NCBI GenBank assembly: GCA_949295785.1
Contig: CASFMJ010000110.1
Span: 1,313-65,312 of the forward strand
DNA: 64,000 nt
Reading direction: 5' to 3'
Source: an uncultured Bacillota bacterium
Lineage (GTDB): Bacteria; Bacillota; Clostridia; Peptostreptococcales; Anaerovoracaceae
Under the pieces are notes generated by a model. That model was given only the letters and a program-made list of their open reading frames with translations, was not told the origin of the DNA and ran no database searches. Position numbers and translations under genes: made by a program. This document shows positions 1 through 33,962 of this stretch, piece after piece. Position 1 is the stretch's first letter; every line of letters begins with the position of its first letter.

Positions 1-1374
1 GGAAAGGGAATGGATAGCCTTATCGGAAGTGTTTTCGATGAAGTAAGCTTCCTGGACATTCTCAGACCAATGGATTGTGTTGAAAAACTGGGAGGAGAAT
101 CCCTTTTTGACCTTTCTGTAAACTGTGCCGAGATACCGGGTGCAGAAACGGTAAATATTCTCGCTACAAAGCCCGGAGGCACTGTACTGTTTGCTAATTT
201 AATAAACAATCTCAACATCGCTCTTTACATAACTGAATCCATATCAAAAAATCTTGAAGTCCGCAGCGCGGAAGGATATCTGGAAGAATACGATAACTTT
301 GATATTGAAATGGTCAGAAAAATGGCCGGATTCTTTAAAGATGTGGAATTTATAGAGAAACCTTATACATGCCCAGACGATGATGAGTACATATATAATC
401 AGGCGCTTATGGAAAAAACCATGGCGGCGGATTTTGTTTTCCGCAGTAAGGCAATGCAGGCGGTTCTGGAAAATATAATCAAGATTTCCAGATATGACTG
501 CAATGTCATAATCTTCGGAGACACCGGAGTCGGAAAGGAAAAAGCGGCTAATCTGATACAGAAAAACAGCGACAGAAAGCTGCAGCCATTTGTTAAGATC
601 AACTGCGGAGCAATTTCGCCCAGCCTGATTGAATCTGAGTTTTTCGGGTACGAAAAAGGCGCGTTTACGGGAGCAAACGCCGGAGGCAAAAAAGGATATT
701 TTGAACTTGCCAATAACGGGGTCATTTTTCTTGATGAAATCGGTGAACTGCCGCTGGAGATGCAGGCAAAACTTCTCAGAGCCATACAGGATGGAGAATT
801 TTACAGAGTGGGAGGAACCTCCCCGGTAAAAACCAATGTGAGGATAATTTCTGCCACCAATAAAGATCTTGAGCAATACGTGGAGGAGGGCAGATTCAGA
901 CGGGATCTCTACTACCGATTAAATGTGGTACCGATAAGAATCCCGCCTCTCGCAGAAAGAACTGAAGATATCCCTGCCCTTATAAATCATTTCCTTTTGA
1001 AATATGGTGAAAAATTCGGACTGAAAAGAGGAATGGCCGAAAGTGCAGTTGAATATCTGCAGCAGCAGCACTGGCCGGGAAACATAAGGGAACTTGAGAA
1101 CACTGTACAGAGACTTCTGATTTCTGCTGAAGGAGAGGATATAACCCTTATGGACGTTATGCAGGAAGTTCATCCTGAACTTTTTGGAACAGGTATCCAG
1201 GAAAATCAGCAGGAAGAAATGTCCGAAATTGATCTTCATGATGCTGTGGAGGATTATGAGAAAAATCTGATAAAGTATGCTTGTGAAAAGTACGGTTCCA
1301 CAAGGAAAGCAGCTTCTGCCATAGGAATAAGCCAGACTCAGCTGGTTCGGAAAAAGAAAAAATACCATTTATAG
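1..1374 (+). CDS. sigma-54-dependent transcriptional activator (bEBP); the 5' end may be cut by the window edge
   Basis: The frame is open from nt 1 (GKG before the first M). It has Walker A GDTGVGKE, the sigma-54 contact motif GAFTGA (EKGAFTGAN), ELENTV, and a C-terminal Fis-type HTH (RKAASAIGISQTQLVRK). The N-terminal ~100 aa align to the C-terminal part of Kdd. Confidence 0.9.
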   Translation, partial: GKGMDSLIGSVFDEVSFLDILRPMDCVEKLGGESLFDLSVNCAEIPGAETVNILATKPGGTVLFANLINNLNIALYITESISKNLEVRSAEGYLEEYDNFDIEMVRKMAGFFKDVEFIEKPYTCPDDDEYIYNQALMEKTMAADFVFRSKAMQAVLENIIKISRYDCNVIIFGDTGVGKEKAANLIQKNSDRKLQPFVKINCGAISPSLIESEFFGYEKGAFTGANAGGKKGYFELANNGVIFLDEIGELPLEMQAKLLRAIQDGEFYRVGGTSPVKTNVRIISATNKDLEQYVEEGRFRRDLYYRLNVVPIRIPPLAERTEDIPALINHFLLKYGEKFGLKRGMAESAVEYLQQQHWPGNIRELENTVQRLLISAEGEDITLMDVMQEVHPELFGTGIQENQQEEMSEIDLHDAVEDYEKNLIKYACEKYGSTRKAASAIGISQTQLVRKKKKYHL

Positions 1375-1380
1375 TAAAAA

Positions 1381-1416
1381 AACAACGTGAACATAAAACG
1401 GTTCACGTTGTTTTTG
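1381..1416 (+). terminator. rho-independent terminator after the activator gene
   Basis: Perfect 12-bp stem AACAACGTGAAC / GTTCACGTTGTT with an 8-nt loop, followed by a T run. Confidence 0.7.
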
Positions 1417-1531
1417 TATGAAACGAAAACGGTTCAAAAAATCCTGCGCGAGAAACGACAAAAAAAGACAACAACCGGTTAAACTGTGCAAAACACAGCT
1501 CGTCAAATGACGGTTGTTTTTAACAGAGTGT

Positions 1532-1547
1532 TGGCATAAATTTTGCT
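1532..1547 (+). promoter_or_regulatory. sigma-54 (-24/-12) promoter of the lysine-fermentation operon
   Basis: TGGCATAAATTTTGCT matches TGGCAC-N5-TTGCW with the exact GG-to-GC spacing. It lies ~46 nt upstream of the kdd start and downstream of a bEBP gene. Confidence 0.7.
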
Positions 1548-1593: not shown

Positions 1594-2631
1594 ATGGAAT
1601 TTAAAAAAGGAGACATTTACGGAACACATCGCGTGATTAAACCAAAGGGAGTGCTTCCTCAGCCGGCAGATGTCGTAGACAATAATATGGAGATATATGA
1701 CAATGAAGTGCTGATTGATGTACATACTTTAAATATAGATTCTGCGTCATTCACAGAAATTGAAAAACGTGCAGGTGGAGACACAGCGGAAATAGAAAAG
1801 ATAATTCTCAATATAGTCGAAACTACAGGTAAGCATAAAAACCCATGGACGGGTTCCGGTGGAATGCTTATCGGCAAAGTTGCCCAGGTTGGCCCTAATT
1901 ACGAAGGTGATCTTAAAAAGGGAGACAAGATTGCGACTCTGGTGTCTCTTTCTCTGACGCCGCTGAGAATTGATGAGATAATCGAAATAAGACCTGATAT
2001 AGACCAGGTTGACATAAAAGGGCAGGCCATACTTTTCCAGAGCGGTATATATGCAAAACTTCCAAAAGATATACCTCAGACTCTGGCACTTTCGGTGCTT
2101 GATGTGGCCGGAGCTCCTGCTCAGACAGCTAAAATATGCAAACCCGGAGATACAGTTGTTGTTCTGGGCGGTGGCGGCAAATCAGGCATACTGTGCTGCT
2201 GGCAGGCAAAGAAGCAGGTCGGTGTCAACGGGACAGTCATTTGTGTAGATGGATTTAAAAAATCCATAAACAGAGCAATGTCGGTGGGAGTGGCAGATGA
2301 ATACAGCGTGGTCAACGCCACAGATGCCATGGCCATGTATGAAGAAATATATGATCTTACAGACGGCAATATGGCCGATGTGGTTATCAATGTGGTAAAT
2401 ATACCGAATACAGAGATGGCTTCTATAATGGCGGCTAAAGATAACGGTCTTGTGTATTTCTTTTCCATGGCCACCAGCTTTACAAAAGCCGCTCTTGGAG
2501 CAGAGGGAGTCGGAAAAGATGTTCAGATGCTCATAGGAAACGGATACACTAAAGGACATGCAAATGTAGCGCTGCAGATATTGAGAGAAGATGAAAGAAT
2601 CAGAAATCTGTTCGCTCAGATGTATGCATAA
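1594..2631 (+). CDS. kdd: L-erythro-3,5-diaminohexanoate dehydrogenase (Kdd), copy 1
   Basis: 345 aa with RBS AAAGGAG. Family-typical blocks are GTHRVIKPKGVLPQPAD, GKHKNPWTGSGGML and the GGGGKSG nucleotide loop. It sits in a kamA/kamDE context. Confidence 0.85.
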   Translation: MEFKKGDIYGTHRVIKPKGVLPQPADVVDNNMEIYDNEVLIDVHTLNIDSASFTEIEKRAGGDTAEIEKIILNIVETTGKHKNPWTGSGGMLIGKVAQVGPNYEGDLKKGDKIATLVSLSLTPLRIDEIIEIRPDIDQVDIKGQAILFQSGIYAKLPKDIPQTLALSVLDVAGAPAQTAKICKPGDTVVVLGGGGKSGILCCWQAKKQVGVNGTVICVDGFKKSINRAMSVGVADEYSVVNATDAMAMYEEIYDLTDGNMADVVINVVNIPNTEMASIMAAKDNGLVYFFSMATSFTKAALGAEGVGKDVQMLIGNGYTKGHANVALQILREDERIRNLFAQMYA

Positions 2632-2771: not shown

Positions 2772-3839
2772 ATGAAAAAAGGATGCCCTTACGGTACACA
2801 CAGAGTAATTTCCCCGAAAGGAGTATTACCACAGCCGGCTGATGTTATCGACAACACTATGGAGATCTATGACAACGAAGTTCTGATCGATGTTAAGACT
2901 CTCAATGTTGACTCTGCTTCTTTTACTGAAATCGTAAGAAGATCATGCGACGGCAAGAAGCCCGCAGATATCGAAAACTCTCCTGAAGATCAGGAAAAAG
3001 TAAAGAAGACAATGATGGAAATTGTTGCTAACGCTGGTAAGCATAAGAACCCATGGACAGGTTCCGGCGGAATGCTCATCGGTACTGTTAAGGAAATAGG
3101 ACCTGCGTATGTAGGAGACTTAAAGGTAGGCGACAAGATCGCTACACTGGTATCCCTTTCTCTGACTCCGCTGGTTATTGATGAGATCCTGGAAATGAGA
3201 CCTGCTATTGACCAGGTTGATATCAAGGGTCAGGCAATACTGTTCCAGAGCGGAATCTATGCTGTTCTTCCTGACGATATGCCTGAAGGACTTGCACTTT
3301 CAGCACTGGACGTAGCAGGAGCTCCAGCTCAGGCTGCCAAACTGGTTCAGTCCGGAATGAAAGTTCTTATCATAGGCGGAGGCGGAAAGTCCGGTCTTCT
3401 CTGCTTATATGAAGCTAAGAAGAGAGCAGGCGTTACCGGTCTGGTAGTATGTGCCGCAGGTTCACAGAAATCAGAAGACAGAGCAAGAAAGCTGGATCTG
3501 GCTGATGAATACTTCCATATGGATGCTACAGATGCAGTTGGAATGTACAACAAGGCTATGGAACTGACCAATGGCGAATTATTCGACCTGGTAATCAACT
3601 GTGTAAACATAGAAAACACAGAGATGGCTTCCATCCTGGCCTGCAAGGACGAAGGAACTGTATACTTCTTCTCAATGGCTACAAGCTTCACTAAGGCTGC
3701 TCTGGGCGCAGAAGGCGTTGGCAAGGACGTAAACATGATCATCGGAAATGGTTACACTAAGGGTCATGCTGCTATCACTCTTCAGGTTCTCAGAGAGCAT
3801 GAAGGACTCAGAAACCTGTTCCAGGAAATGTATGCTTAA
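2772..3839 (+). CDS. kdd: L-erythro-3,5-diaminohexanoate dehydrogenase (Kdd), copy 2
   Basis: 355 aa from the ATG at 2772, with RBS GAGGAGG at 2756-2762. The track ORF starts at an upstream TTG. It is roughly two-thirds identical to copy 1 by eye and has a ~12-aa insertion after SFTEI. Confidence 0.85.
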   Translation: MKKGCPYGTHRVISPKGVLPQPADVIDNTMEIYDNEVLIDVKTLNVDSASFTEIVRRSCDGKKPADIENSPEDQEKVKKTMMEIVANAGKHKNPWTGSGGMLIGTVKEIGPAYVGDLKVGDKIATLVSLSLTPLVIDEILEMRPAIDQVDIKGQAILFQSGIYAVLPDDMPEGLALSALDVAGAPAQAAKLVQSGMKVLIIGGGGKSGLLCLYEAKKRAGVTGLVVCAAGSQKSEDRARKLDLADEYFHMDATDAVGMYNKAMELTNGELFDLVINCVNIENTEMASILACKDEGTVYFFSMATSFTKAALGAEGVGKDVNMIIGNGYTKGHAAITLQVLREHEGLRNLFQEMYA

Positions 3840-3998: not shown

Positions 3999-5258
3999 AT
4001 GGCAATTAGAAATTGGAAAGACATCCCTCTGTTTAAGGATGTTACCGACGAACAGTGGAACGACTGGCATTGGCAGGTTGAAAACAGACTGTCAACAGTT
4101 GAGGAAATTGCACAGGTAGTGAACCTGACTGAGCAGGAAAGAGCTGATATCGAAAAGGTTATGGGCGGCTTCAGAGTGGGAATCACTCCTTACTATGCTT
4201 CCCTGATGGATCCTGATGATCCGAGAGATCCGGTAAGAATGCAGGCAGTACCTACACTGGCAGAGATGCACAGATCCGAAGCAGACGACCTTGATCCGCT
4301 TCATGAAGATGCTGACTCTCCGGCTCCGGGACTTACTCACAGATATCCTGACAGAGTACTGTTCCTGATCACTGACCAGTGCTCAATGTACTGCAGACAC
4401 TGCACCAGAAGAAGACTGGCAGGAGAAACTGACGGTTCAAGATCAAGAGAGGATATCGATGCATGTATAGATTACATAAGAAGAACACCTCAGGTAAGAG
4501 ACGTTCTTCTGTCAGGCGGAGACTGCCTCTGTGTTGAGGATGACACTCTTGAATACATCATCAGCGAACTGAGAAAGATTCCTCATGTTGAGATCGTAAG
4601 ACTTGGCTCAAGAACTCCTGTGGTAATGCCTATGAGAATCACAGACAAGCTGGTAAACATGCTGAAGAAGTATCACCCGATCTGGCTGAACACTCACTTC
4701 AACCATCCTAAGGAAATGACTCCTGATTCAATGGAAGCATGCAGAAAGCTGGCTGACGCAGGTATTCCTCTCGGAAACCAGTCAGTACTCTTGAGAGGTG
4801 TAAACGACTGTAAGCACATCATGAGAGAACTGGTACAGATTCTGGTTAAGAACAGAGTAAGACCTTACTACATCTACATCTGCGACCTGTCAATGGGTAT
4901 TGAACACTTCAGAACACCTGTTTCAAAGGGTATCGAGATTATTGAAGGTCTGAGAGGACACACTTCAGGATATGCTGTTCCGACTTTCGTAGTAGATGCT
5001 CCCGGCGGCGGCGGAAAGACTCCGGTAATGCCTCAGTATGTGATTTCTCAGACTCCTCACAAGGTTATCCTGAGAAACTACGAGGGTATCATTACTACCT
5101 ATACGGAACCTCAGCTTCCTGATCTTCCTTGCACATGCGATTACTGCACAGGCAAGAAAACTTACAAATATCAGGGTGTTTCGGCTCTGGGAGAAGGTCC
5201 TGAAATCAAGACCATCGAGCCTGCACATCTGGCAAGACACGAAAGAAACCAGCACTAA
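3999..5258 (+). CDS. kamA: L-lysine 2,3-aminomutase (radical SAM)
   Basis: 419 aa with RBS AAGGAG. The CxxxCxxC radical-SAM motif is CSMYCRHC (nt 4380-4403). Also present are the blocks RVGITPYYASLMDPDDPRDP and PGGGGKTP. Confidence 0.92.
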   Translation: MAIRNWKDIPLFKDVTDEQWNDWHWQVENRLSTVEEIAQVVNLTEQERADIEKVMGGFRVGITPYYASLMDPDDPRDPVRMQAVPTLAEMHRSEADDLDPLHEDADSPAPGLTHRYPDRVLFLITDQCSMYCRHCTRRRLAGETDGSRSREDIDACIDYIRRTPQVRDVLLSGGDCLCVEDDTLEYIISELRKIPHVEIVRLGSRTPVVMPMRITDKLVNMLKKYHPIWLNTHFNHPKEMTPDSMEACRKLADAGIPLGNQSVLLRGVNDCKHIMRELVQILVKNRVRPYYIYICDLSMGIEHFRTPVSKGIEIIEGLRGHTSGYAVPTFVVDAPGGGGKTPVMPQYVISQTPHKVILRNYEGIITTYTEPQLPDLPCTCDYCTGKKTYKYQGVSALGEGPEIKTIEPAHLARHERNQH

Positions 5259-5343
5259 TGCAGTTTTTTCGGTCTGTAAAATAAACAAATCTCTGCGGGG
5301 AGACCTTGTGTCTCCCCACAGATGTGAAAGAGGATACATAATT

Positions 5344-6360
5344 ATGGGGCTTCTTTATGACCTTTCAAAAAAATACAGGACTATTTCCATAGTAGGAATG
5401 GCAAAAAATGCAGGAAAAACTACTGCACTGAATTACCTTATAGAAGAGGCCGACGATGAGGGGCTCACGCTGGGAATAACCTCCACCGGAAGAGACGGAG
5501 AAACACAGGATCTTGTAACGGGGACGGAAAAACCCAGGGTTTATCTTTACGAAGATACAATAGTATCGGTGCCGACCCAGCTTTATGATCTTGCAGAGGC
5601 CGGTCTTGAAATAGTAAGAAAATCAAATTACAGAACATCCATAGGTGACCTGCTTTTGTGCAGAGTGGCCGAAGCAGGATATGTTCAGATAGCCGGGCCT
5701 GTGGCTACGGCTCATACTAAGATGATGTGTGATGAAATGTTTGATATGGGATGTGAGCTCATATTAATAGACGGCGCAATAGACAGAAAGTCCATAGCTT
5801 CACCCGACACATCGGATGCAATAATACTTTCTACAGGGGCTGTGCTCTCCAGAAATCTTAAAAAAGTTGTGGAGGATACTGCTCATATAGTCAGTCTTTA
5901 TACTTTACCTCAGCTTGAGGAATGCGAAGCCAGAAGTCTTATAGAAGACAATATGGGAGAAGACAAGATAATGCTGATAAAAAAAGGCCGGGTTGAAATT
6001 CTTGATCTTGCCACGGGACTGGGATCAAGCAGGTTCATAGATGAGGCTATAGATCAGGATACTGATTATGTTTATATACCCGGAGCCTTTACTAACAGTG
6101 TTGTAGCTGATATCCATCCATCAAAACTCAAAAGAGTAAAGTTTGTTCTTAAAGATCCTACAAAGATTTTTATGAACCCTATGGATTGGGGGCAGCTTAA
6201 AAAGAAAAAATTTCAGGTAAGCGTTATGAAAAATATAAAGGTGGCAGCAATTACAGTCAACCCGGTGGCTCCAAGCGGCTACAGCTTTGACCATCAGGTT
6301 TTGCGTGACGCTATGCAGGCCGCCCTTCCGGATATACCGGTAGTAGATGTGAGAATGTAA
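5344..6360 (+). CDS. kamB: P-loop protein of the lysine-fermentation cluster (putative 5,6-aminomutase reactivase subunit)
   Basis: 338 aa from the ATG at 5344, with RBS AGAGGA. The track ORF start at 5176 overlaps kamA and was rejected. The Walker-A-like motif is GMAKNAGKTT (5395-5424). The name comes from my recollection of the kamA-B-C-D-E naming and is not verified. Confidence 0.55.
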   Translation: MGLLYDLSKKYRTISIVGMAKNAGKTTALNYLIEEADDEGLTLGITSTGRDGETQDLVTGTEKPRVYLYEDTIVSVPTQLYDLAEAGLEIVRKSNYRTSIGDLLLCRVAEAGYVQIAGPVATAHTKMMCDEMFDMGCELILIDGAIDRKSIASPDTSDAIILSTGAVLSRNLKKVVEDTAHIVSLYTLPQLEECEARSLIEDNMGEDKIMLIKKGRVEILDLATGLGSSRFIDEAIDQDTDYVYIPGAFTNSVVADIHPSKLKRVKFVLKDPTKIFMNPMDWGQLKKKKFQVSVMKNIKVAAITVNPVAPSGYSFDHQVLRDAMQAALPDIPVVDVRM

Positions 6361-6380
6361 ACAAGCAGAAGGAGGAATAT

Positions 6381-8024
6381 ATGAAGCACGGCTCAAACAG
6401 GAGACTTGCCAATGTAAAGACGAGATCGGAGACAGGGCTGGACTATGTTATGTCTCAGATAGATCTGAACACTCCTTTCGGCAAAAATATATTAAAAGAA
6501 ACCAGACCTTTCTTCCCGGGGGAAGAAGAAAAACTGAGGAAGGAACTGGATAAAGTTTCTGATATGATTGAATTTGCAAAGGAAAATAAACGTTCAGTCG
6601 AGATACTTTCAGAAGCTTTTATGGAAATCAAGGATAATACGTATACCATAGACAGAAGTTCAAAGAATGCGTTGTCTGTAGTCGAATTATACGAAATAAA
6701 GACATTGCTTCTGATGATGAGAAAGATCGAGCAGATATGTTCCAAGACCAGTCCTGCTGTTCCTGATGAATTCGTTCTGGAACCTACAGAGGAACTTCTG
6801 GATGTTATGGATCCCAATAAGGACAGGCTTAATACATTTTACATATACAGTGAATTCTCAGAAAAGCTGAAAGAACTTCGCGAGGAAAAACACAAGATAG
6901 AAGTTTCCATAAGGAAAACACAGAAAGCGCAAAAAGAGGAAATAAGAAAACAGTATGGAATCATACTGACTCCCAAGTTTGACTGTTCGGTTTCCAAGAG
7001 CAGCGGAGATGTGGAAAAATATAAGGCTGTTCCCCAGCTGGAACAGGTAGATGAAGATTATATGACAGTAACCTTCAGACTTAAACCGGATCAGGATGTT
7101 TATGAACTTGTCAGAAAGTCCGAGGATCTTACTACAGACATTGAGGAAGAAGAGGCTGTGGTAAGGAAGTCGCTTTCGGAGAAAATCGCAGAATATGCCG
7201 ATGTGCTGAAAGCAAATTGTAACAGAATAGGTCACCTTGATCTGGCTCTTGGCAAAGCTCTTTATGCGATAAAACATGAATGTGTAAAGCCGGAAATTAG
7301 TGACAGTCACATACTTGAGATAGAAGACGGCAGACATCTTAAGGTAGAGGATATTTTAAAATCTAAGGGTAAAAAGTACTGCCCGGTCAGCATCTCTCTT
7401 AAGGATGGTGTGACATGCATAACAGGTGCCAATATGGGGGGCAAGACGATTTCGCTTAAGCTTACAGGTCTTGTGGCCATACTTGCACAATATGGATTTT
7501 TTGTTCCTTGCAGATCCGCCAGAGTGGGACTTTCCAATTATATGCAGATACTGATAGGTGACAGCCAGTCTGTGGAAAGAGGTCTTTCCAGTTTCGGAAG
7601 TGAAATGGAAGAACTCAAAGAAATTCTGGATCACAGCGAAGACAGGTCACTGATACTGATAGATGAGATAGCCAGCGGTACAAATCCGGTAGAGGGCCTT
7701 GCTCTTACCAGGAGCCTTGTGGACTATCTAAAGGAAAAACCGTATATTACTCTCATTACTACTCATTTTGAGGCTGTTACAGAAGAAAACGGAATAAAGA
7801 ACATGCAGGTCAGAGGGCTGGCCGATGTGGATTTCCGTCAGCTGGACAGTGAACTCAGATATGCAAAACGTAAAGAGAGAATAAATATAATTTCAAAGTA
7901 TATGGACTACAGGCTGTATACAGTCGAAAAACAGGGCCAGATACCTAAAGATGCTCTTAACATCGCAAAGATGCTGGGCATCAGTCAAGAAATCATTGAC
8001 GGAGCAAAAAAATATATTAAGTAA
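6381..8024 (+). CDS. kamC: MutS-domain-V-like ATPase (putative lysine 5,6-aminomutase reactivase ATPase)
   Basis: 547 aa with RBS GAAGGAGG. It has Walker A GANMGGKT (7425-7448), Walker B LILIDEIASGTNP, and SSFGSEMEE and TTHF blocks as in MutS/MutS2 domain V. The N-terminal ~330 aa are charged and coiled-coil-like, with no mismatch-binding domain recognised. Confidence 0.6.
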   Translation: MKHGSNRRLANVKTRSETGLDYVMSQIDLNTPFGKNILKETRPFFPGEEEKLRKELDKVSDMIEFAKENKRSVEILSEAFMEIKDNTYTIDRSSKNALSVVELYEIKTLLLMMRKIEQICSKTSPAVPDEFVLEPTEELLDVMDPNKDRLNTFYIYSEFSEKLKELREEKHKIEVSIRKTQKAQKEEIRKQYGIILTPKFDCSVSKSSGDVEKYKAVPQLEQVDEDYMTVTFRLKPDQDVYELVRKSEDLTTDIEEEEAVVRKSLSEKIAEYADVLKANCNRIGHLDLALGKALYAIKHECVKPEISDSHILEIEDGRHLKVEDILKSKGKKYCPVSISLKDGVTCITGANMGGKTISLKLTGLVAILAQYGFFVPCRSARVGLSNYMQILIGDSQSVERGLSSFGSEMEELKEILDHSEDRSLILIDEIASGTNPVEGLALTRSLVDYLKEKPYITLITTHFEAVTEENGIKNMQVRGLADVDFRQLDSELRYAKRKERINIISKYMDYRLYTVEKQGQIPKDALNIAKMLGISQEIIDGAKKYIK

Positions 8025-8036
8025 GGAGAGAAAAGG

Positions 8037-9593
8037 ATGAAAAGCAAATTAAACCTTGACCCGAAAGTAGTGGACAGTGCTCGTTCTCATGCTGCCAATA
8101 TCGCTCGCGATATGCAGGAATTCATCGACAGACATACTACTGTCAGCACAGAGAGAACAGTTCTGAGACTTTTAGGTGTTGACGGTGTTGACGATGTCGA
8201 CACTCCGCTTCCAAACGTAGTAGTTGATCAGATCAAGGAGGCAGGCGGACTTTCACGCGGCGCTGCTTACTGGATGGGAAATGCAATGATCCAGACAGGA
8301 AAAACTCCTCAGGAAATTGCCGAGGATGTTGCTGCCGGAAAACTGGAACTTACTAAGCTTCCTACAGCATCTGCTGAAGAGGCAAAAGAAGCAGTAATGC
8401 CTAAGGTACACGAATCACTTAAGAAAATCAAAGCTCAGACAGCCAAGAGACAGGAACTTCTTGACAGGCTGGGAGAAGGCGCACAGCCATATCTTTATGT
8501 TATAGTTGCAACAGGTAACATCTACGAAGATGTTATTCAGGCCCAGGCGGCTGCAAGACAGGGAGCTGATATAATTGCTGTTATCAGAACTACTGCTCAG
8601 TCACTTCTTGACTACGTTCCTTACGGACCGACTACTGAAGGCTTCGGCGGAACATATGCCACACAGGAAAACTTCAGGATCATGAGAAAGGCTCTTGACG
8701 AAGTTGGTGAAGAAGTAGGCAGATACATAAGACTGTGTAACTATTCATCCGGAATGTGCATGCCTGAGATTGCTGCCATGGGTGCTATGGAAAGACTGGA
8801 TGTTATGCTTAACGATGCTATCTATGGCATACTGTTCAGAGACATCAACATGCAGAGAACTCTGGTTGACCAGTACATGAGCCGTGTAATAATAGGATAC
8901 TGCGGTATCATATTCAACTCAGGAGAAGATAACTATCTTACTACTGATGATGCCTATGAGGCTGCTCATACTGTTACTGCTTCGCAGTTCATCAATGAAC
9001 AGTTTGCGGTACTTGCAAACATTCAGGAATGGCAGATGGGTCTGGGACACGCATTCGAAATGGATCCGGGTATGACCAACGGCTTCCTGTATGAACTGGC
9101 TCAGGCAGTTATGGCAAGAGAAATCTTCCCTAACGCAAGCCTTAAATACATGCCTCCTACAAAATTCATGACAGGAAATATCTTCAAGGGAAATATTCAG
9201 GATGCGCTGTTCAATCTGGTAGCTATCTGGTCCGGACAGTCACTGCAGCTTCTGGGAATGCTGACTGAAGCTATCCACACTCCTCATATGCATGACAGAT
9301 ATCTTTCTATCGAAAATGCAAAATATATATTCAACAACTGTAAGGATCTGGGTTCAGAAGTAGAATTCAAGCAGGACGGTATTATCCAGAAGAGAGCACA
9401 GTACGTTCTTGCAAAAGCTGATGAGCTCCTTGCTGAGGTAGAAAAAGAAGGTCTTTTCTCAACTATTGAGAAAGGTATATTCGGCGGCGTTAAGAGACCT
9501 AAAGACGGCGGACATGGTCTTGACGGCGTTTGCGTAAAAGACGATATGTATTTCAATCCGTTTATTCCACTTATGCTTGGAGGTGAAGAATAA
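8037..9593 (+). CDS. kamD: D-lysine/beta-lysine 5,6-aminomutase alpha subunit
   Basis: 518 aa with RBS AAGGAGAG. Size and sequence are typical of KamD (TIM-barrel PLP/B12 large subunit). It lies directly upstream of the B12-binding small subunit with a TAATG overlap. Confidence 0.88.
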   Translation: MKSKLNLDPKVVDSARSHAANIARDMQEFIDRHTTVSTERTVLRLLGVDGVDDVDTPLPNVVVDQIKEAGGLSRGAAYWMGNAMIQTGKTPQEIAEDVAAGKLELTKLPTASAEEAKEAVMPKVHESLKKIKAQTAKRQELLDRLGEGAQPYLYVIVATGNIYEDVIQAQAAARQGADIIAVIRTTAQSLLDYVPYGPTTEGFGGTYATQENFRIMRKALDEVGEEVGRYIRLCNYSSGMCMPEIAAMGAMERLDVMLNDAIYGILFRDINMQRTLVDQYMSRVIIGYCGIIFNSGEDNYLTTDDAYEAAHTVTASQFINEQFAVLANIQEWQMGLGHAFEMDPGMTNGFLYELAQAVMAREIFPNASLKYMPPTKFMTGNIFKGNIQDALFNLVAIWSGQSLQLLGMLTEAIHTPHMHDRYLSIENAKYIFNNCKDLGSEVEFKQDGIIQKRAQYVLAKADELLAEVEKEGLFSTIEKGIFGGVKRPKDGGHGLDGVCVKDDMYFNPFIPLMLGGEE

Positions 9594-10387
9594 TGACAGC
9601 AGAATGCAAAGCAACCAGCAGTGTAGATTTAACCAAAGTTAAACCTTATGGTGATACATTAAACGACGGAATGGTCGAAATGGCCTTTACTCTTCCCGTA
9701 CCTTACGGTGAAGAAGCAGAAGAAGCAGCTAAGCAGCTGGCAAAGAAAATGGGTTTTGATGAACCAAATGTAACTTACTATCATGAACTTTGTCCCGGAT
9801 TCACTTTCTTTGTAGTATACGGAAAGTGTCAGCAGACAATAGACTTCACCGCTATCAAGGTTCCTAAGGTTGAAGGAACTACGATGGACAGAGTTGAATG
9901 CGGTGAATGGATAGGCGAACATGTGGGAAGAGATATCGTAGTTGTAGGTGCTTCCATAGAATCAGACGCACACACTGTAGGTATCGATGCCATTATCCAG
10001 ATGAAAGGATTCCATGGACATTTCGGCCTTGAAAGATTTAAGCATGTAGTTCCGTATAATATGGGATCACAGGTTCCTTGTGAGGCTCTGATCGCCAAGG
10101 CTAAGGAAGTCAATGCCGATGCCATACTGGTTTCACAGACAGTAACTCAGAAGGATATTCATATCAAACAGCTGACAAAGATGGCTGAACTGCTTGAGGC
10201 CGAAGGTCTGCGTGATAAAGTTATTCTTACTTGCGGAGGTCCTAGAATTTCTCATGAACTGGCACAGGAACTGGGATACGATGCAGGTTTCGGACCGGGA
10301 AAATATGCTGAACATGTAATGAGCTATATCATGCAGGAAGTAGTCAAGAGAGGCTGGCAGAACAAACCGCAGATATCAGATCGTTAA
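9593..10387 (+). CDS. kamE: D-lysine/beta-lysine 5,6-aminomutase beta subunit (B12-binding)
   Basis: 264 aa. The cobalamin-binding DxHxxG motif is SDAHTVGID, followed by a Rossmann-like C-terminal domain. It is translationally coupled to kamD. Confidence 0.88.
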   Translation: MTAECKATSSVDLTKVKPYGDTLNDGMVEMAFTLPVPYGEEAEEAAKQLAKKMGFDEPNVTYYHELCPGFTFFVVYGKCQQTIDFTAIKVPKVEGTTMDRVECGEWIGEHVGRDIVVVGASIESDAHTVGIDAIIQMKGFHGHFGLERFKHVVPYNMGSQVPCEALIAKAKEVNADAILVSQTVTQKDIHIKQLTKMAELLEAEGLRDKVILTCGGPRISHELAQELGYDAGFGPGKYAEHVMSYIMQEVVKRGWQNKPQISDR

Positions 10388-10481
10388 AAAATTGTTCTGC
10401 TACTCATTGACATGAAGCCGAAAGTGAGTTAGAGTATATATGTTGGACATATGACAAATTTTAGGAAAGGTGATATATAAC

Positions 10482-11207
10482 ATGATTAACAAAATTATGA
10501 CTGCAGACGAAGCAGTTGCAGGCGTAAAAGACGGTATGACCATCATGGTAGGCGGATTCCTTGCAACAGGTTCCCCTGAAGTTCTGATGGATGCGCTGGT
10601 AAGAAAAGGCGTAAAGCATCTTACCGTTATCGCTAACGACGGAGGTCTCGATGCAGGACAGCCTGCAGGAGAATTCGGCGGAAAGACTGCAAGAGGCGTT
10701 GGCAAACTGCTTGAACACCACATGGTAGACCACATAATCGCTTCTCATCTTGGAGTGAACCCTAAGCTTAACGAACAGTTTGCTGAAGGTACATTAAGAT
10801 ACACACTGGTTCCTCAGGGAACCCTGGCTGAAAAGATCAGGGCTGCCGCATACGGTCTGGGCGGAGTGCTGACTCCTACCGGTGTAGGTACTCCTATGGA
10901 GACTGAACTTGATGAACTGGGAAGAGAAAAGAAGGTAGTAGAGATAGAAGGTAAAAAGTATCTTCTCGAGATGCCTCTCCGTGCTGACTATGCTTTCATC
11001 AGACCTACTGTAGCTGACAAATTCGGCAACTATTACTGCGCAAAAGCTACTAAAAACTTCAACTATGTAATGGCAGGAGCTGCAGATAAGACAATCATAG
11101 CTCCGGAAAAGATAGTTGAAATAGGTGAAATAGATCCTGATATGTTTGCTGTAGCAGGCGTTCTGGTAGATGCTATTGCGGAAGGAGAGAAACCATGGCA
11201 GATTTAA
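10482..11207 (+). CDS. atoD: 3-oxoacid (acetoacetate):butyryl/acetyl-CoA CoA-transferase subunit A
   Basis: Starts at the ATG at 10482, after AGGAAAGG. The family I CoA-transferase A signature is MTIMVGGF...G.PE. It overlaps the B subunit by 13 nt. Confidence 0.85.
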   Translation: MINKIMTADEAVAGVKDGMTIMVGGFLATGSPEVLMDALVRKGVKHLTVIANDGGLDAGQPAGEFGGKTARGVGKLLEHHMVDHIIASHLGVNPKLNEQFAEGTLRYTLVPQGTLAEKIRAAAYGLGGVLTPTGVGTPMETELDELGREKKVVEIEGKKYLLEMPLRADYAFIRPTVADKFGNYYCAKATKNFNYVMAGAADKTIIAPEKIVEIGEIDPDMFAVAGVLVDAIAEGEKPWQI

Positions 11208-11851
11208 AAACAAGAATCGCAAAGAGATGTGCGAAAGAATTTAAAGACGGTGAATTCGCCAACCTTGGAATAGGCCTGCCTACAATGGTAGCTGACTATA
11301 TCCCTGAAGATATCATGGTAACATTCCATTCCGAAAACGGATTTGCCGGTATAGACGCTATTGCTGATGAGTCAAATGTCGATGTTGACATCATCAATTC
11401 CGGCGGAACTTATGTAACCGCTCTTGACAGAGTAAAATACTTTGACACAGCCGAGTCCTTCGGTCTTGTAAGAGGCGGACATGTAAGAGCTACCGTTCTG
11501 GGCGCTATGGAAGTTGCTGAAAACGGAGACCTGGCAAACTGGATCGTTCCCGGCAAGAAAGTAGCCGGCATGGGCGGAGCTATGGACCTGTGTACAGGTT
11601 GTCCTGAGGTTATTATCGTAATGCTCCATACTCAGAAAGGTAATCCGAAGATTCTGAAGAAATGTACTCTTCCGCTTACAGCAGAAAAGTGTGTTTCCAA
11701 GATCATTACTGAAATGGGTGTAATGGAAGTAAGAGAAGACGGTATCTGGGTTGTTGAACTTCACCCCGATTATACCAAGGAAGATATCCAGGCTGCAACA
11801 GGCTGCGAACTTCACTTCGATCCTGATATGAAACCTATGGAAGAAGAATAG
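11195..11851 (+). CDS. atoA: 3-oxoacid CoA-transferase subunit B
   Basis: 218 aa. It contains the SENG motif (FHSENGF) that carries the catalytic Glu of family I CoA-transferase beta subunits. Confidence 0.85.
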   Translation: MADLKTRIAKRCAKEFKDGEFANLGIGLPTMVADYIPEDIMVTFHSENGFAGIDAIADESNVDVDIINSGGTYVTALDRVKYFDTAESFGLVRGGHVRATVLGAMEVAENGDLANWIVPGKKVAGMGGAMDLCTGCPEVIIVMLHTQKGNPKILKKCTLPLTAEKCVSKIITEMGVMEVREDGIWVVELHPDYTKEDIQAATGCELHFDPDMKPMEEE

Positions 11852-11938: not shown

Positions 11939-13138
11939 TTACTTAAGCATGTAGTTTTTCAGATCCTGACGCCTGCTTATGTTAAGTTTATGCAGACATA
12001 CAGAAATATACTGTTTGACGGTATTAGGGGAAATGTTAAGGTGTTCGCCGATTTCCTGATTTGTCCATCCGCGGGCAGCAAGCATAGCTATAGCAAATTC
12101 GGTAGTAGTAAGATTGTCAGCCACATCTTCACCGGTAGTGGGATTATGGATCTTTCGCCAGCCTGCTGAAAATCGGTATGTTATATTTATAATTTTTTTA
12201 AATTCATCAGGCCAGCTTTTTTTTATGACAGATTCCAGCATGCCACCCAGAAGACCATGATGTTCTCCGAAGCCTTCGATGAGCCCGTCAGGCATGGCAA
12301 TCTCCCATGCAGCTAAAAGATGTTCTTTGGCTTTTTCCGGCTGCTTGAGACTCATGTAATCCATTACAGCTACCAGATGAAGGTAAATAGCAGGAATAGG
12401 ATACATTTCTGACAACATGGCAAGGGTTGTCTCTGTTATGCCTATGCTTTTGCCGTAATCCTTCTGCAGATATGTATAGTGTGCCTGAACATAAAAAGCA
12501 AAAGCTCTTACGCCGGGAGGCAGTAGGGGAAGATAACCGGTAATCCTGGTAAAATTGTCGGGGAGCGGCAGATGCAGGAGTACAGAAGCCGCTGATGCGA
12601 CAAATGATTTAGCTGCAGCAACATTAATCTCTGTATTGTTGCTTTCAGATGAAAATATACGACTTAATTCGTTCAGAGCATATCGGGTCTGATTTATATG
12701 CCCTATGGCAAGATTGGAATATGCATATATTAAAAAGGCAGATAAACGTGCGCCTTCATTTTCGCTTGCCATATACAGCTCGCATATTTCTGCAGCCTGT
12801 TCAGGATGGCCGCTGAAATAATAAAATTCAGCTTTTGCAATATCCTTTTGGGTTCCCGGCTCCATTTTTTCTATATAATCAAGACAGGTTCCCGGTTTGA
12901 ATGAAGAATTCATAAGGGGCATCAGTGATGAGGCAGCCATAGACTGGGGCTTCGCATTGTATGAAGGCATTTTGTTTCTCTGCCGATTTATACGAGGGTC
13001 TTCAGCGGTTAAAGGAATAGTCCATCGGCCGTCTGTTTTTTTTGCACCCTCAATACGGTTCAGAGCACAGTATTTCTGCAGCATGCGTTCAGAAATGTTC
13101 CATTTTTCAGATGCCTGTTTTATTGACATATATTCCAT
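11939..13138 (-). CDS. LuxR-family transcriptional regulator with an N-terminal MerR/excisionase-type HTH and a TPR-like middle region
   Basis: Starts at the ATG at 13138, after GGAGG. The N-terminus reads MSIKQASEKWNISERMLQKYC. The C-terminal LuxR HTH reads EFAIAMLAARGWTNQEIGEHLNISPNTVKQYISVCLHKL. Confidence 0.8.
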   Translation of the reverse strand: MEYMSIKQASEKWNISERMLQKYCALNRIEGAKKTDGRWTIPLTAEDPRINRQRNKMPSYNAKPQSMAASSLMPLMNSSFKPGTCLDYIEKMEPGTQKDIAKAEFYYFSGHPEQAAEICELYMASENEGARLSAFLIYAYSNLAIGHINQTRYALNELSRIFSSESNNTEINVAAAKSFVASAASVLLHLPLPDNFTRITGYLPLLPPGVRAFAFYVQAHYTYLQKDYGKSIGITETTLAMLSEMYPIPAIYLHLVAVMDYMSLKQPEKAKEHLLAAWEIAMPDGLIEGFGEHHGLLGGMLESVIKKSWPDEFKKIINITYRFSAGWRKIHNPTTGEDVADNLTTTEFAIAMLAARGWTNQEIGEHLNISPNTVKQYISVCLHKLNISRRQDLKNYMLK

Positions 13139-13191
13139 GATACTTACCTCCACCGATTTATTTATAATCTCAGAATTATTTCCAAGTTATG

Positions 13192-15225
13192 TTATGATTT
13201 TTCACCTTCAATGTATAGCAGTCCTTCTCTGGTTATTCTTGAACCGGTACGGCCGGTGCCGGTATGGATAAGGCCGTTTTTCTTCAGTTCAGCCATGTAT
13301 TTTTTCAGCAGACCTTCTCCGATATTTATATTTTCTTTGTATAAACTTTGTAATATTGCCCCGCGTCCTATTCCGACATATGGAGTTGATTCTGACAGTA
13401 TAATCTTGAGAATCTTCTTCATAATATAGTCTTTACCTGCCATGTCATCATTCTGAAAAACCGCGCCAAAGCAGTCATCTGATTTTATATAATCCGGCTC
13501 AGCTGATGTGCCAGCAGGCAGATATTCGGGAAGCTGTCCCATTATCCTGTAATATGACGCTGCATTTTCCAGTTCTCTTACATTTCCGGGCCAGCTGTAT
13601 CTTAAAAGAGTCTCCTGCTCCTTTGGCAGCAGGTTATTGTATTTTTTGCCGAGGAAAACTTTGAGCAAAGGAAGAATATCGGCCTTTCTGTCTTTGAGAG
13701 GTGCAAGGTTCAGAGTTATAACATTGAGTCTGTAAAAAAGATCGCTTCTGAATTTCCCCTCAGAGACTCTTTTCTCAAGATCTGCATTGGTTGCTGCTAT
13801 TATGCGGACGTCAATATCTATTATTTTTCCGCTTCCGACCCGCATTATCTGGCGCTCCTGTATAACCCTGAGAAGCCTGGTCTGAAGGCTTGAAGAAATA
13901 TCACCTATTTCATCAAGAAAAATCGTACCATGCTGTGCATGTTCAAAAAGACCGAGTTTGCCGCTTTTTTTTGCACCTGTAAAAGAACCTTCTTCATAGC
14001 CGAAAAGCTCGCTTTCCAGAAGACTGTCAGGGATGGCTCCGCAGTTGACAGCCACAAAAGGATATTTCCTGCGTGGAGAATAATTGTGTATTGACTGAGC
14101 AAGCAATTCTTTACCCGTACCGCTTGCACCTCGTATAAGAATGGTGTAATCAGATAGGGCTGCTTTTTTTGCCATACTGATACATTGCTGCATAGAAGCA
14201 GACTGATGAATCATATCATTGAAAGTGTACCGGGCGTAAAACCCGGATTGTTTAAGTTTTCTGCTCAGGTTGTTTTCACTTTCACGAAGGTCTTTCTCGT
14301 TCTGGAAGATAAGACAGCATCCTATGGATTCATCCAGTAATGAAATATTAATTTTTTTAACCAGATAATTTCCTTCTTTAAAGACGATCATTTCATCTTC
14401 AAATGAGTCAGAAGAGGCAAGAGCATCCGGCAGATAATGATTCTGAATAAAAATATCATTTTGTTCAATGCCAAAGGTAGAAGCCGCCTGTTCGTTTATA
14501 TAATGTATGGTACCTCTGCTGTCAAGAAGGATTATTGCCTGTGATGAACCATCTACTACATTGTTAAGCATCTGATCTTTAAGAAAACTGCTCATATAAC
14601 TGTTTATGTAGTCTATACTTGTGTCCATATCCTCCTTGATTTTTTTCAGCAGATTACCATGAACATACGAGTTCTGAAGCCCCAGAAGAGAAATGACTTT
14701 GTGGAATGTCTCAAAGCTGATTTCCCGGTTATATATGTTATATACATGAGTTATATGATCCGGAACAAGGTGCTTTGAGGCTTTGGTGACTATGGCTGTG
14801 TCTATGTCGTCATAACCTCCCTGGACTGCAGTATCTTTATCGAATGGAACCAGCATAAGGTGACCTACGCCAAGCTCATATATCATGTACATGGTCTGAA
14901 GTATGCTCTGTCTTGAGTCATTTACCACAAGCACTCTGGTTCCGGCAGGTATTTCCATTACAGGATGGAGATACTTCTGCTGTATGCTTCTTGTCATTAC
15001 CACTACTTTGGAAAAATCGTCTATGTGACCTACAAGACTGCTGAGAATGTCTTCATAGCATATTACATATGCATCAGCTTCAATTCTCTCATCTTTGTCC
15101 ACCTCATTCATATAATAATTTGTAATGTTGACATAATCTCCCAGAACACTGTAAAAATTGTTTTCCAGATACTCTATAGCCGCAGGATTACACATGCTTC
15201 TGTAAATGATAGCAAGCTCTTTCAT
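13192..15225 (-). CDS. sigma-54-dependent activator (PrpR_N-like, PAS, AAA+) with an atypical winged-helix-like C-terminus
   Basis: Starts at the ATG at 15225, after GGAGG. It has Walker A GASGTGKE, the GAFTGA variant GSFTGA, and GNVRELEN. No Fis-type HTH is present. The C-terminus reads GRGAILQSLYKENINIGEGLLKKYMAELKKNGLIHTGTGRTGSRITREGLLYI. Confidence 0.88.
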   Translation of the reverse strand: MKELAIIYRSMCNPAAIEYLENNFYSVLGDYVNITNYYMNEVDKDERIEADAYVICYEDILSSLVGHIDDFSKVVVMTRSIQQKYLHPVMEIPAGTRVLVVNDSRQSILQTMYMIYELGVGHLMLVPFDKDTAVQGGYDDIDTAIVTKASKHLVPDHITHVYNIYNREISFETFHKVISLLGLQNSYVHGNLLKKIKEDMDTSIDYINSYMSSFLKDQMLNNVVDGSSQAIILLDSRGTIHYINEQAASTFGIEQNDIFIQNHYLPDALASSDSFEDEMIVFKEGNYLVKKINISLLDESIGCCLIFQNEKDLRESENNLSRKLKQSGFYARYTFNDMIHQSASMQQCISMAKKAALSDYTILIRGASGTGKELLAQSIHNYSPRRKYPFVAVNCGAIPDSLLESELFGYEEGSFTGAKKSGKLGLFEHAQHGTIFLDEIGDISSSLQTRLLRVIQERQIMRVGSGKIIDIDVRIIAATNADLEKRVSEGKFRSDLFYRLNVITLNLAPLKDRKADILPLLKVFLGKKYNNLLPKEQETLLRYSWPGNVRELENAASYYRIMGQLPEYLPAGTSAEPDYIKSDDCFGAVFQNDDMAGKDYIMKKILKIILSESTPYVGIGRGAILQSLYKENINIGEGLLKKYMAELKKNGLIHTGTGRTGSRITREGLLYIEGEKS

Positions 15226-15294
15226 GGAAGCGCCTCCATATTTTTTTATAAAAATATTGTAACAAAATATGACGCTGTCAGTCAAGAGCAGCAA

Positions 15295-15310
15295 TGGCAT
15301 GAAAGTTGCA
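15295..15310 (+). promoter_or_regulatory. sigma-54 (-24/-12) promoter
   Basis: TGGCATGAAAGTTGCA is a near-perfect match to TGGCACG-N4-TTGCA. It lies ~40 nt upstream of the SDR start codon and is divergent from the bEBP gene. Confidence 0.78.
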
Positions 15311-32565: not shown

Positions 32566-32684
32566 TCCTTATTGAGAGCGGCTGAGGGAATAGGCCCTGC
32601 GAAGCCCGGCAACCTGTGTACATGGGTAAGACCATTATGCAAGGTGCTAAATCCTACAGAAATATCATTTCTGAAAGATGAGGA
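32566..32684 (+). promoter_or_regulatory. SAM-I (S-box) riboswitch aptamer
   Basis: The P1 arms are TCCTTAT / ATGAGGA. Conserved blocks are GAGAGCGGCTGAGGGAATAGGCCC, CCCGGCAACC and AAGGTGCTAAATCC. It lies upstream of metK. Confidence 0.9.
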
Positions 32685-32777: not shown

Positions 32778-33962
32778 ATGAAAAAATTGTTCACATCCGA
32801 ATCCGTAACTGAAGGACATCCGGATAAAGTCTGCGACCAGATTTCCGATGCTATCCTTGATGCCATAATGGAGCAGGATCCATACGGCAGAGTAGCAGCA
32901 GAGGCTACCACCACCACAGGCTATGCAATGGTAATGGGTGAGATAAGTACAAAATGCTATGTTGATATACCTAAGATTGTCCGTAAAGTAATATTAGATA
33001 TAGGATATGACAGAAGCGATTATGGATTCGACGGCAACACCTGTGCAGTACTTTCTGCCATTGACGAACAATCCGGCGATATAGCCATGGGAGTTGATAA
33101 GGCTCTTGAATATAAGGACGGAACTCTTGATGACAAGATAGACACCATAGGAGCAGGTGATCAGGGACTTATGTTCGGATATGCATGTAATGAGACTCCG
33201 GAGCTTATGCCTATGCCTATTGCTCTTGCTCACAAGCTGGCAAGAAGACTTGCCGAAGTGAGAAAAGATGGAACATTAAAATATCTCCGCCCTGATGGAA
33301 AAACACAGGTCACTGTAGAATATGACGGCAATCAGGTAAAGAGAATAGATACAGTTCTGGTTTCTACCCAGCATGATCCTGATGTGACACAACAGCAGAT
33401 AAAAGACGATATTATTAAACACGTGGTAAAACCCATAGTTCCGGCAGAACTGCTTGATGAAAATACAAAATACTTTGTGAATCCGACAGGAAGATTTGTA
33501 ATCGGCGGGCCTCACGGAGACTCAGGTCTTACAGGCAGAAAGATAATTGTAGACAGCTATGGCGGATACGCTCGCCACGGAGGCGGAGCTTTTTCCGGAA
33601 AGGATCCTACAAAAGTTGACCGCAGTGCGTCATATGCGGCAAGATATGCTGCTAAAAACGTGGTGGCAGCAGGAATTGCCGATAAATGCGAAATTCAGCT
33701 TGCTTATGCCATTGGTGTAGCAAGACCTGTATCTATTATGGTGGATACTTTCGGTACGGGAAAGATTTCAGATGAAAAGATAGCTGAACTGGTAGAAAAG
33801 AATTTCGATATGAGACCTGCTGCAATCATAAGAGATCTTAATCTGAGAAGACCTATATACAGACAGGTGGCAGCATATGGACATTTCGGAAGAACTGATA
33901 TAGACCTTCCATGGGAACATACTGACAAAGCGGAGACACTGAAAAAGCAGGTCGGAATCTGA
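32778..33962 (+). CDS. metK: S-adenosylmethionine synthetase
   Basis: 394 aa. It contains [19 protein letters not shown] and GGGAFSGKD. Confidence 0.97.

Follow-up and report, generated by a model that had tools for sequence, protein, structure and literature searches.

Introduction

Some sigma-54 activators (bEBPs) are gated by a ligand. PrpR (2-methylcitrate), XylR/DmpR and NorR each sense a metabolite of a pathway, and PrpR with 2-methylcitrate provides a precedent for induction by a pathway intermediate. In other transcription factors, an enzyme or Rossmann fold has been recruited as the effector-binding module, as in GabR/MocR, where an aminotransferase fold is placed on a GntR HTH, and in Rex. 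The enzyme at issue here is Kdd (L-erythro-3,5-diaminohexanoate dehydrogenase, 3,5-DAHDH), the third enzyme of lysine fermentation, which carries out the NADP-dependent oxidative deamination of 3,5-diaminohexanoate.

Among the routes by which gut bacteria make butyrate is lysine fermentation (PMC4697335, PMC5715108). According to the passage on it in PMC4428206, which cites Zhang et al. 2014, KamR of Bacillus thuringiensis is a sigma-54 EBP whose gene adjoins kamA and which activates the kamA operon from a -24/-12 promoter. The sensor of KamR is a PAS domain (PMC4428206). No Kdd-like domain is listed among the N-terminal domains of Clostridiales EBPs in Nie et al. 2019 (PMC6615313). In the searchable papers, we found no mention of KDD_N or of a Kdd-like domain fused to a bEBP and no description of how lysine fermentation is controlled in Anaerovoracaceae-type gut anaerobes.

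We analyzed a stretch of DNA of 64,000 nucleotides (“the window”) that begins within the gene for a sigma-54 activator and continues into a lysine fermentation operon. We consider it likely that this activator is a sigma-54 EBP that receives its signal through an entire Kdd paralog no longer capable of catalysis, and that it provides metabolite-gated activation of the kdd and kal promoters. Like KamR, it is a sigma-54 activator found beside lysine 2,3-aminomutase genes and a -24/-12 promoter. Unlike KamR, it has no PAS domain and carries a Kdd paralog as its sensor, and its predicted target is the full fermentation operon of strict anaerobes (kdd, kamABCDE, CoA transferase and kal). With PrpR, XylR/DmpR and NorR it shares the sensor-AAA+-HTH layout, a gene position beside a catabolic operon and an expected relief of N-terminal repression, but its sensor is a complete paralog of a pathway enzyme and not a PrpR_N, V4R, GAF or PAS domain. 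As in GabR/MocR and Rex, an enzyme or Rossmann fold within a transcription factor would bind the effector. The regulator differs from these in its AAA+ sigma-54 output and in its parent enzyme, which is encoded by the gene that opens the predicted target operon. The architecture as such is already captured by automatic Pfam annotation through its KDD_N tag. What would be new is a ligand-gated bEBP with a recruited pathway enzyme as its sensor, which we did not find described in searchable papers. It would be an especially clear example of an enzyme of a pathway that was duplicated and turned into the ligand sensor of its own operon’s regulator.

Results and Discussion

The regulator gene in the window and its match to Kdd

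Positions 1-1374 (+, frame 1) form an ORF that is open from the first base and runs off the 5′ end of the window. Its translation gives the last 457 of the 683 residues of a sigma-54 activator. The full-length database protein (P0001) is 100% identical across the window part, and three contigs were found to carry its gene. Beyond the Kdd-like part, the ORF is typical of a sigma-54 activator. The sigma-54 interaction AAA+ domain and its lid span 436..1173 (+; Pfam PF00158, E=2.3e-67, and PF25601, AAA_lid_14, E=2e-21) and include Walker A (GDTGVGK, 517-537), GAFTGA (658-675) and Walker B (FLDEIG, 727-744), while the C-terminal helix-turn-helix DNA-binding domain and the stop codon occupy 1225..1374 (+; Pfam HTH_50, E=5e-14, and translation). 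The gene identities assigned in the original prediction were correct. A linker at 337..435 (+; residues about 339-371 of P0001), which separates the Kdd alignment from Sigma54_activat, gave no family match.

The region upstream of the linker (1..336, +; P0001 residues 227-338) is the part that had been proposed, by eye, to be homologous to Kdd. It contains the motifs LFDLSVNC (103-126), ITES with a retained Glu305 (229-240) and AEGY with a retained Gly318-Tyr319 (268-279). The segment LFDLSVNCAEIPGAETVNILATKPGGTVLFANL (window-frame residues 35-67, nt 103-201) gives an ungapped alignment with residues 276-308 of Kdd2 (nt 3579-3677), and counting by hand reproduced the reported 16 identities in 33 positions at the coordinates and residue counts first given. 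By BLASTP, Kdd2 matched the in-window N-terminal 140 residues with 23 of 77 identities (E=2e-10). The claimed continuation of the similarity to a shared G-Y is present in this alignment, where AEGY of the regulator lies opposite GNGY of Kdd, and the claimed likeness to both Kdd copies extends to Kdd1 (E=5e-4 against the in-window part). These E-values rule out a chance similarity between the regulator and Kdd.

The N terminus is a complete Kdd-like module

Solved structures of 3,5-DAHDH are available (PDB 7DL0, 7DL1, 7DL3 and 7DL7), and the family is described by NCBIfam NF052381 and by Pfam KDD_N plus ADH_zinc_N. When the full-length protein was compared with the two Kdd copies of the operon by BLASTP, residues 1-340 aligned end to end over about 330 residues with both Kdd1 (26% identity, E=5e-42) and Kdd2 (31% identity, E=7e-47). 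A phmmer search of the PDB matched residues 4-338 to the solved dehydrogenase 7DL3 (E=2.4e-25). The NCBIfam Kdd model NF052381 also matched the regulator (E=2e-41), at 141.8 bits and thus below the equivalog cut-off of 200, so that the regulator is a homolog of Kdd and not an equivalog. In precomputed annotation, Pfam KDD_N (PF26370) is assigned to the regulator and to both Kdd copies; the Pfam-A copy that we used for scanning does not include the KDD_N model, and the assignment comes from the precomputed annotation only. With this copy, a scan of the full protein returned no N-terminal match, no PAS domain and no further sensor domain.

Structure prediction agreed with the alignments. An AlphaFold2 model of residues 1-343 (pLDDT 92.1, pTM 0.89) was compared with the PDB by Foldseek, and the best seven matches were all 3,5-DAHDH chains (E~1e-29, TM 0.72-0.85), followed by MDR dehydrogenases (E 1e-12, TM about 0.5). 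The regulator and Kdd are thus alike in a two-domain MDR-type fold that extends across both domains and includes the Rossmann fold. Since the N-terminal 340 residues are all Kdd-like, just the final third of the whole module falls within the window, in line with the expectation that only the end of the domain would lie there. The homology that had been predicted therefore proved stronger than claimed: it covers the full length of a domain of about 340 residues, it is seen by sequence, profile and fold, and the domain is fused to an AAA+ core, as the Kdd-like N terminus followed by Sigma54_activat makes clear. An N terminus from an unrelated, known sensor family is ruled out, as no such family was found.

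Enzyme residues kept and lost in the sensor domain

To describe what the sensor has retained, we aligned 29 regulator N termini with 61 Kdd-size enzymes, among them Kdd1, Kdd2 and 7DL3 (90 sequences in all). Fifty-five columns were at least 85% conserved among the 61 enzymes, and P0001 kept 34 of these and changed 21. Those kept include, in 7DL3 numbering, R12, E38, S125, P130, D268, E280, E310 and G323-Y324, the last pair being the shared GY of the original prediction, as well as the KDD signature loop R83-G-K-x-x-N-P-x-T-x-x-G-G95. In Kdd, Glu310 makes a hydrogen bond to the nicotinamide amide of NADPH, and Gly323 lies 3.8 A from that amide (PMC9902596). The dinucleotide loop, which reads GGGGKSG or GANGKSG in enzymes, is GNSMLTN in P0001, so that the second and third glycines are gone (G202M, G205N), and the enzyme-invariant residues D49, Q22 and T300 are replaced (D49E, Q22T, T300N).

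These changes are shared by 23 regulator sequences (class A), which form one clade with a bootstrap of 96/100. G202 and G205 are retained in at least 95% of the 61 enzymes and lost in all 23 class-A regulators, where G202 is replaced by M, P, I or L and G205 by N, A or T. Across these 23 diverse fusions R9, E34, RGKLHNPxTxTGG and E305 (P0001 numbering) are invariant or nearly so, and E45 and N295 are class-specific substitutions that have become fixed at enzyme-invariant positions. In the 80 genomes described below, identity is 58-88% in the sensor half and 59-89% in the AAA+/HTH half, and this similar degree of conservation indicates that the sensor is under selection.

Because the glycine-rich loop and the enzyme-invariant Asp49 are lost, the domain is probably a non-catalytic ligand sensor, and it probably no longer binds NADP(H). 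An active bifunctional dehydrogenase-regulator was rejected for the class-A protein on account of the same losses. The conservation pattern suggests that the substrate pocket is retained. As to whether the nucleotide-binding residues of Kdd persist, the answer is divided: the E310 and G323 equivalents are kept, but the glycine-rich loop is degenerate. The retention of these two nicotinamide-proximal residues means that the sensor domain may still have some nucleotide binding. The ligand had been proposed to be 3,5-diaminohexanoate or NAD(P), and the degenerate loop argues against the NAD(P) part of this proposal. A diaminohexanoate intermediate would be the most likely ligand, and NAD(P)H is disfavored.

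A second class of fusions retains the dinucleotide loop

An exhaustive search for relatives of the sensor domain, using representatives at 50% identity, returned 729 sequences, and among the best 150 of these were 21 clusters of fusion size (679-717 aa). Six of the fusion-sized clusters have an intact GxxGxxG loop (class B). Class B is 36% identical to Kdd and takes a position in the tree intermediate between the enzymes and class A; one common origin for the fusions has weak support (56% bootstrap).

Two class-B loci were examined, that of P0253 and that of a 74%-identical relative, and both have the order kal, regulator, kdd (L089:9462-13443 and L091:9486-17345). In L091, kdd is followed by kce and by TRAP-transporter DctP/DctM genes. 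No adjacent kamA, kamD or kamE was found at these two loci. They could represent a scavenging module for a lysine fermentation intermediate, and an earlier stage of the conversion from enzyme to sensor.

The regulator precedes a conserved lysine fermentation operon

Downstream of the regulator lie kdd1 (1594..2631, +; NF052381, 260.7 bits, cut-off 200) and a second copy, kdd2 (2772..3839, +; NF052381, 244 bits), whose product is 68% identical to Kdd1. They are followed by kamA-kamE for the lysine 2,3- and 5,6-aminomutases and the reactivase (3999..10387, +; NCBIfam equivalogs, all above cut-off), namely kamA (3999-5258), kamB (about 5383-6360), kamC (6381-8024), kamD (8037-9593) and kamE (9593-10387). 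The operon ends with the A and B subunits of a CoA-transferase (atoD/atoA-like; 10470..11851, +; NCBIfam TIGR02429 and TIGR02428). The mechanical ORF for kamB (5176-6360) has a GTG start inside kamA; since the NCBIfam model for KamB matches from residue 70 onward, the start is probably near 5383.

GTDB species genomes were scanned with a six-sequence alignment, which gave 223 confirmed relatives of the regulator, and the best 80 were inspected. These best 80 of 223 are mostly labeled Anaerovoracaceae, Emergencia, Ihubacter, Candidatus Fimisoma and unclassified Clostridia/Bacillota MAGs, with Firmicutes bacterium CAG:145 the closest among them (88%). In these 80 genomes, every locus with enough downstream DNA has the gene order regulator, kdd (one or two copies), kamA-E and often atoD. 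The first gene downstream of the regulator is always kdd, often duplicated, and many loci have a single kdd. Nearly all related loci that extend far enough carry the kdd2 type; only some carry the kdd1 type. The locus presents a complete testable circuit of sensor, activator, predicted sites, two promoters and targets, in at least 80 inspected species genomes.

A sigma-54 promoter and paired palindromes precede kdd

A sigma-54 -24/-12 promoter, TGGCATAAATTTTGCT (TGGCAT-N5-TTGCT), was found by pattern match at 1532..1547 (+), 47 nt before the kdd1 start codon. The pattern has only two matches in the window, of which this is one. Strict -24/-12 elements were found in 69 of the 75 spacers between regulator and kdd. 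No sigma-54 gene (rpoN/sigL) was found among the window proteins scanned.

Two candidate activator sites lie between the regulator gene and this promoter. The predicted distal site, TGAACATAAAACGGTTCA (1388-1405, +), is an 18-nt sequence with a GAAC-N8-GTTC dyad, and the predicted proximal site, TGAAACGAAAACGGTTCA (1419..1436, +), also of 18 nt, lies 31 bp from it, with its core centered 104 bp upstream of the promoter. The dyad GAAC-N8-GTTC was the top enriched one in the spacers, where it occurred in 33-42 of 75 loci compared with at most 3 in shuffles. Of the 75 loci, 53 have a pair of dyads spaced 30-32 bp, and in 49 the spacing is exactly 31 bp; such a pair was seen in 0 of 200 shuffles. 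The distal site is located inside a terminator-like hairpin (1375..1418, +; inverted repeat I1 and direct repeat D1) that directly follows the regulator stop codon and has 18-nt arms and then a T-run. Because of this overlap, part of the conservation of the distal palindrome could reflect termination; the element at 1375-1418 may act as a terminator and an enhancer site at once. Together, the sigma-54 promoter, the conserved paired upstream palindromes and the invariant synteny support the prediction that the activator regulates kdd.

The divergent kal gene is a predicted second target

Upstream of the window (L001:778-1325, where window nt 1 is L001 nt 2003) lies a divergent kal gene with its promoter and site. 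Its product is a 3-aminobutyryl-CoA ammonia-lyase of 130 aa (NF052388, 192.7 bits, cut-off 160). The gene is preceded by a sigma-54 promoter of its own on the minus strand, TGGCACGTATTTTGCA, and by a predicted activator site, GAACCGTTTTCGGTTC, so that one palindrome is found before kal compared with two before kdd. A divergent kal is present in 71 of 72 loci, and 65 have the minus-strand sigma-54 promoter. In 58 loci there is a GAACC-N6-GGTTC site, centered 38 bp from the kal promoter (37 bp in one locus). This arrangement suggests that the kal promoter is a second target of the regulator. On the window’s own contig, the kal site is also about 25 bp before the regulator start codon, which suggests autoregulation, and the regulator probably controls its own expression through this site.

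A model for metabolite-gated activation and its alternatives

In the model that we favor, dimers of the regulator would bind the palindromes through the HTH, and the Kdd-like domain would keep the AAA+ core inactive until a pathway metabolite binds. The likeliest ligand would be 3,5-diaminohexanoate, which as the substrate of the parent enzyme is the simplest choice, or an isomer, β-lysine or lysine. Having lost the glycine-rich loop and Asp49, the sensor domain would report the ligand rather than consume it. The ligand-bound activator would then assemble into an ATP-hydrolyzing ring that remodels the sigma-54 holoenzyme and opens the kdd and kal promoters. A sensor domain of this kind could serve as a biosensor for diaminohexanoates and β-amino acids, for which 3,5-DAHDH is already under engineering, and its recognition could improve the annotation of Kdd-like sigma-54 activators, which are currently named generically.

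We considered four other explanations. The first of these, which we hold to be unlikely, is that the fusions record a staged transition from enzyme to sensor. Class B may then have kept NADP(H) binding, and perhaps substrate turnover, and would consist of bifunctional trigger enzymes, and class A would consist of pseudoenzyme sensors or of proteins that pair with Kdd. If class A does pair with active Kdd, transcription may read enzyme occupancy or flux and not metabolite concentration.

We give less credence to a redox sensor, in which the Kdd-like domain would bind NAD(P)H or NAD(P)+ and, like Rex, make operon expression follow the redox state of the nicotinamide pool. The Rossmann fold in the model, the retained equivalents of the nicotinamide-proximal E310 and G323, and the intact GxxGxxG loop in the class-B sister group are all in its favor. 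However, all 23 class-A sequences have other residues in place of the loop's second and third glycines, a change that normally abolishes dinucleotide binding, and sensing of redox state would leave the strict pairing with lysine genes unexplained.

Less probable again is that the pseudo-Kdd pairs with active Kdd through the ancestral oligomer interface and senses how much enzyme is present or occupied, and not a free metabolite, in a trigger-enzyme-type circuit comparable to DhaR with DhaK/DhaL. Such pairing could be expected of a full-length paralog with the same predicted fold, and kdd is always the first downstream gene and is often duplicated; many loci, however, have one kdd only, and the many enzyme-conserved residues kept in the cleft region are better explained by the binding of a small molecule. 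The least probable explanation is that the domain is a structural remnant, an oligomerization or scaffold module that senses nothing while control lies elsewhere: enzyme-derived domains can act purely as dimerization modules, and the ligand of the sensor domain is one that we infer, but R9, E34, RGKLHNPxTxTGG and E305 are strongly conserved away from obvious structural roles, the class-specific changes E45 and N295 are fixed at enzyme-invariant positions, and P0001 has no other sensor domain. Of the readings considered, gating by a lysine fermentation metabolite is the one that we retain.

Other regulatory features in the window

A gene for a LuxR/GerE-type HTH regulator of about 403 aa that additionally matches HTH_17 at its N terminus (11939-13153, -) sits between the lysine operon and a second sigma-54 activator gene (13192-15300, -). 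This second activator has 701 aa, with PAS and AAA+ domains and 240 further N-terminal residues. Divergent from its gene is the second sigma-54 promoter of the window, TGGCATGAAAGTTGCA (15295-15310, +), which heads an operon at about 15.3-22.6 kb with SDR, Na+/H+-antiporter-family, polysaccharide-deacetylase-like, amidohydrolase, isocitrate/isopropylmalate-dehydrogenase-like and permease genes. Further downstream, the S-adenosylmethionine synthetase gene (32778-33962) is preceded by a SAM (S-box) riboswitch (32566-32684, +).
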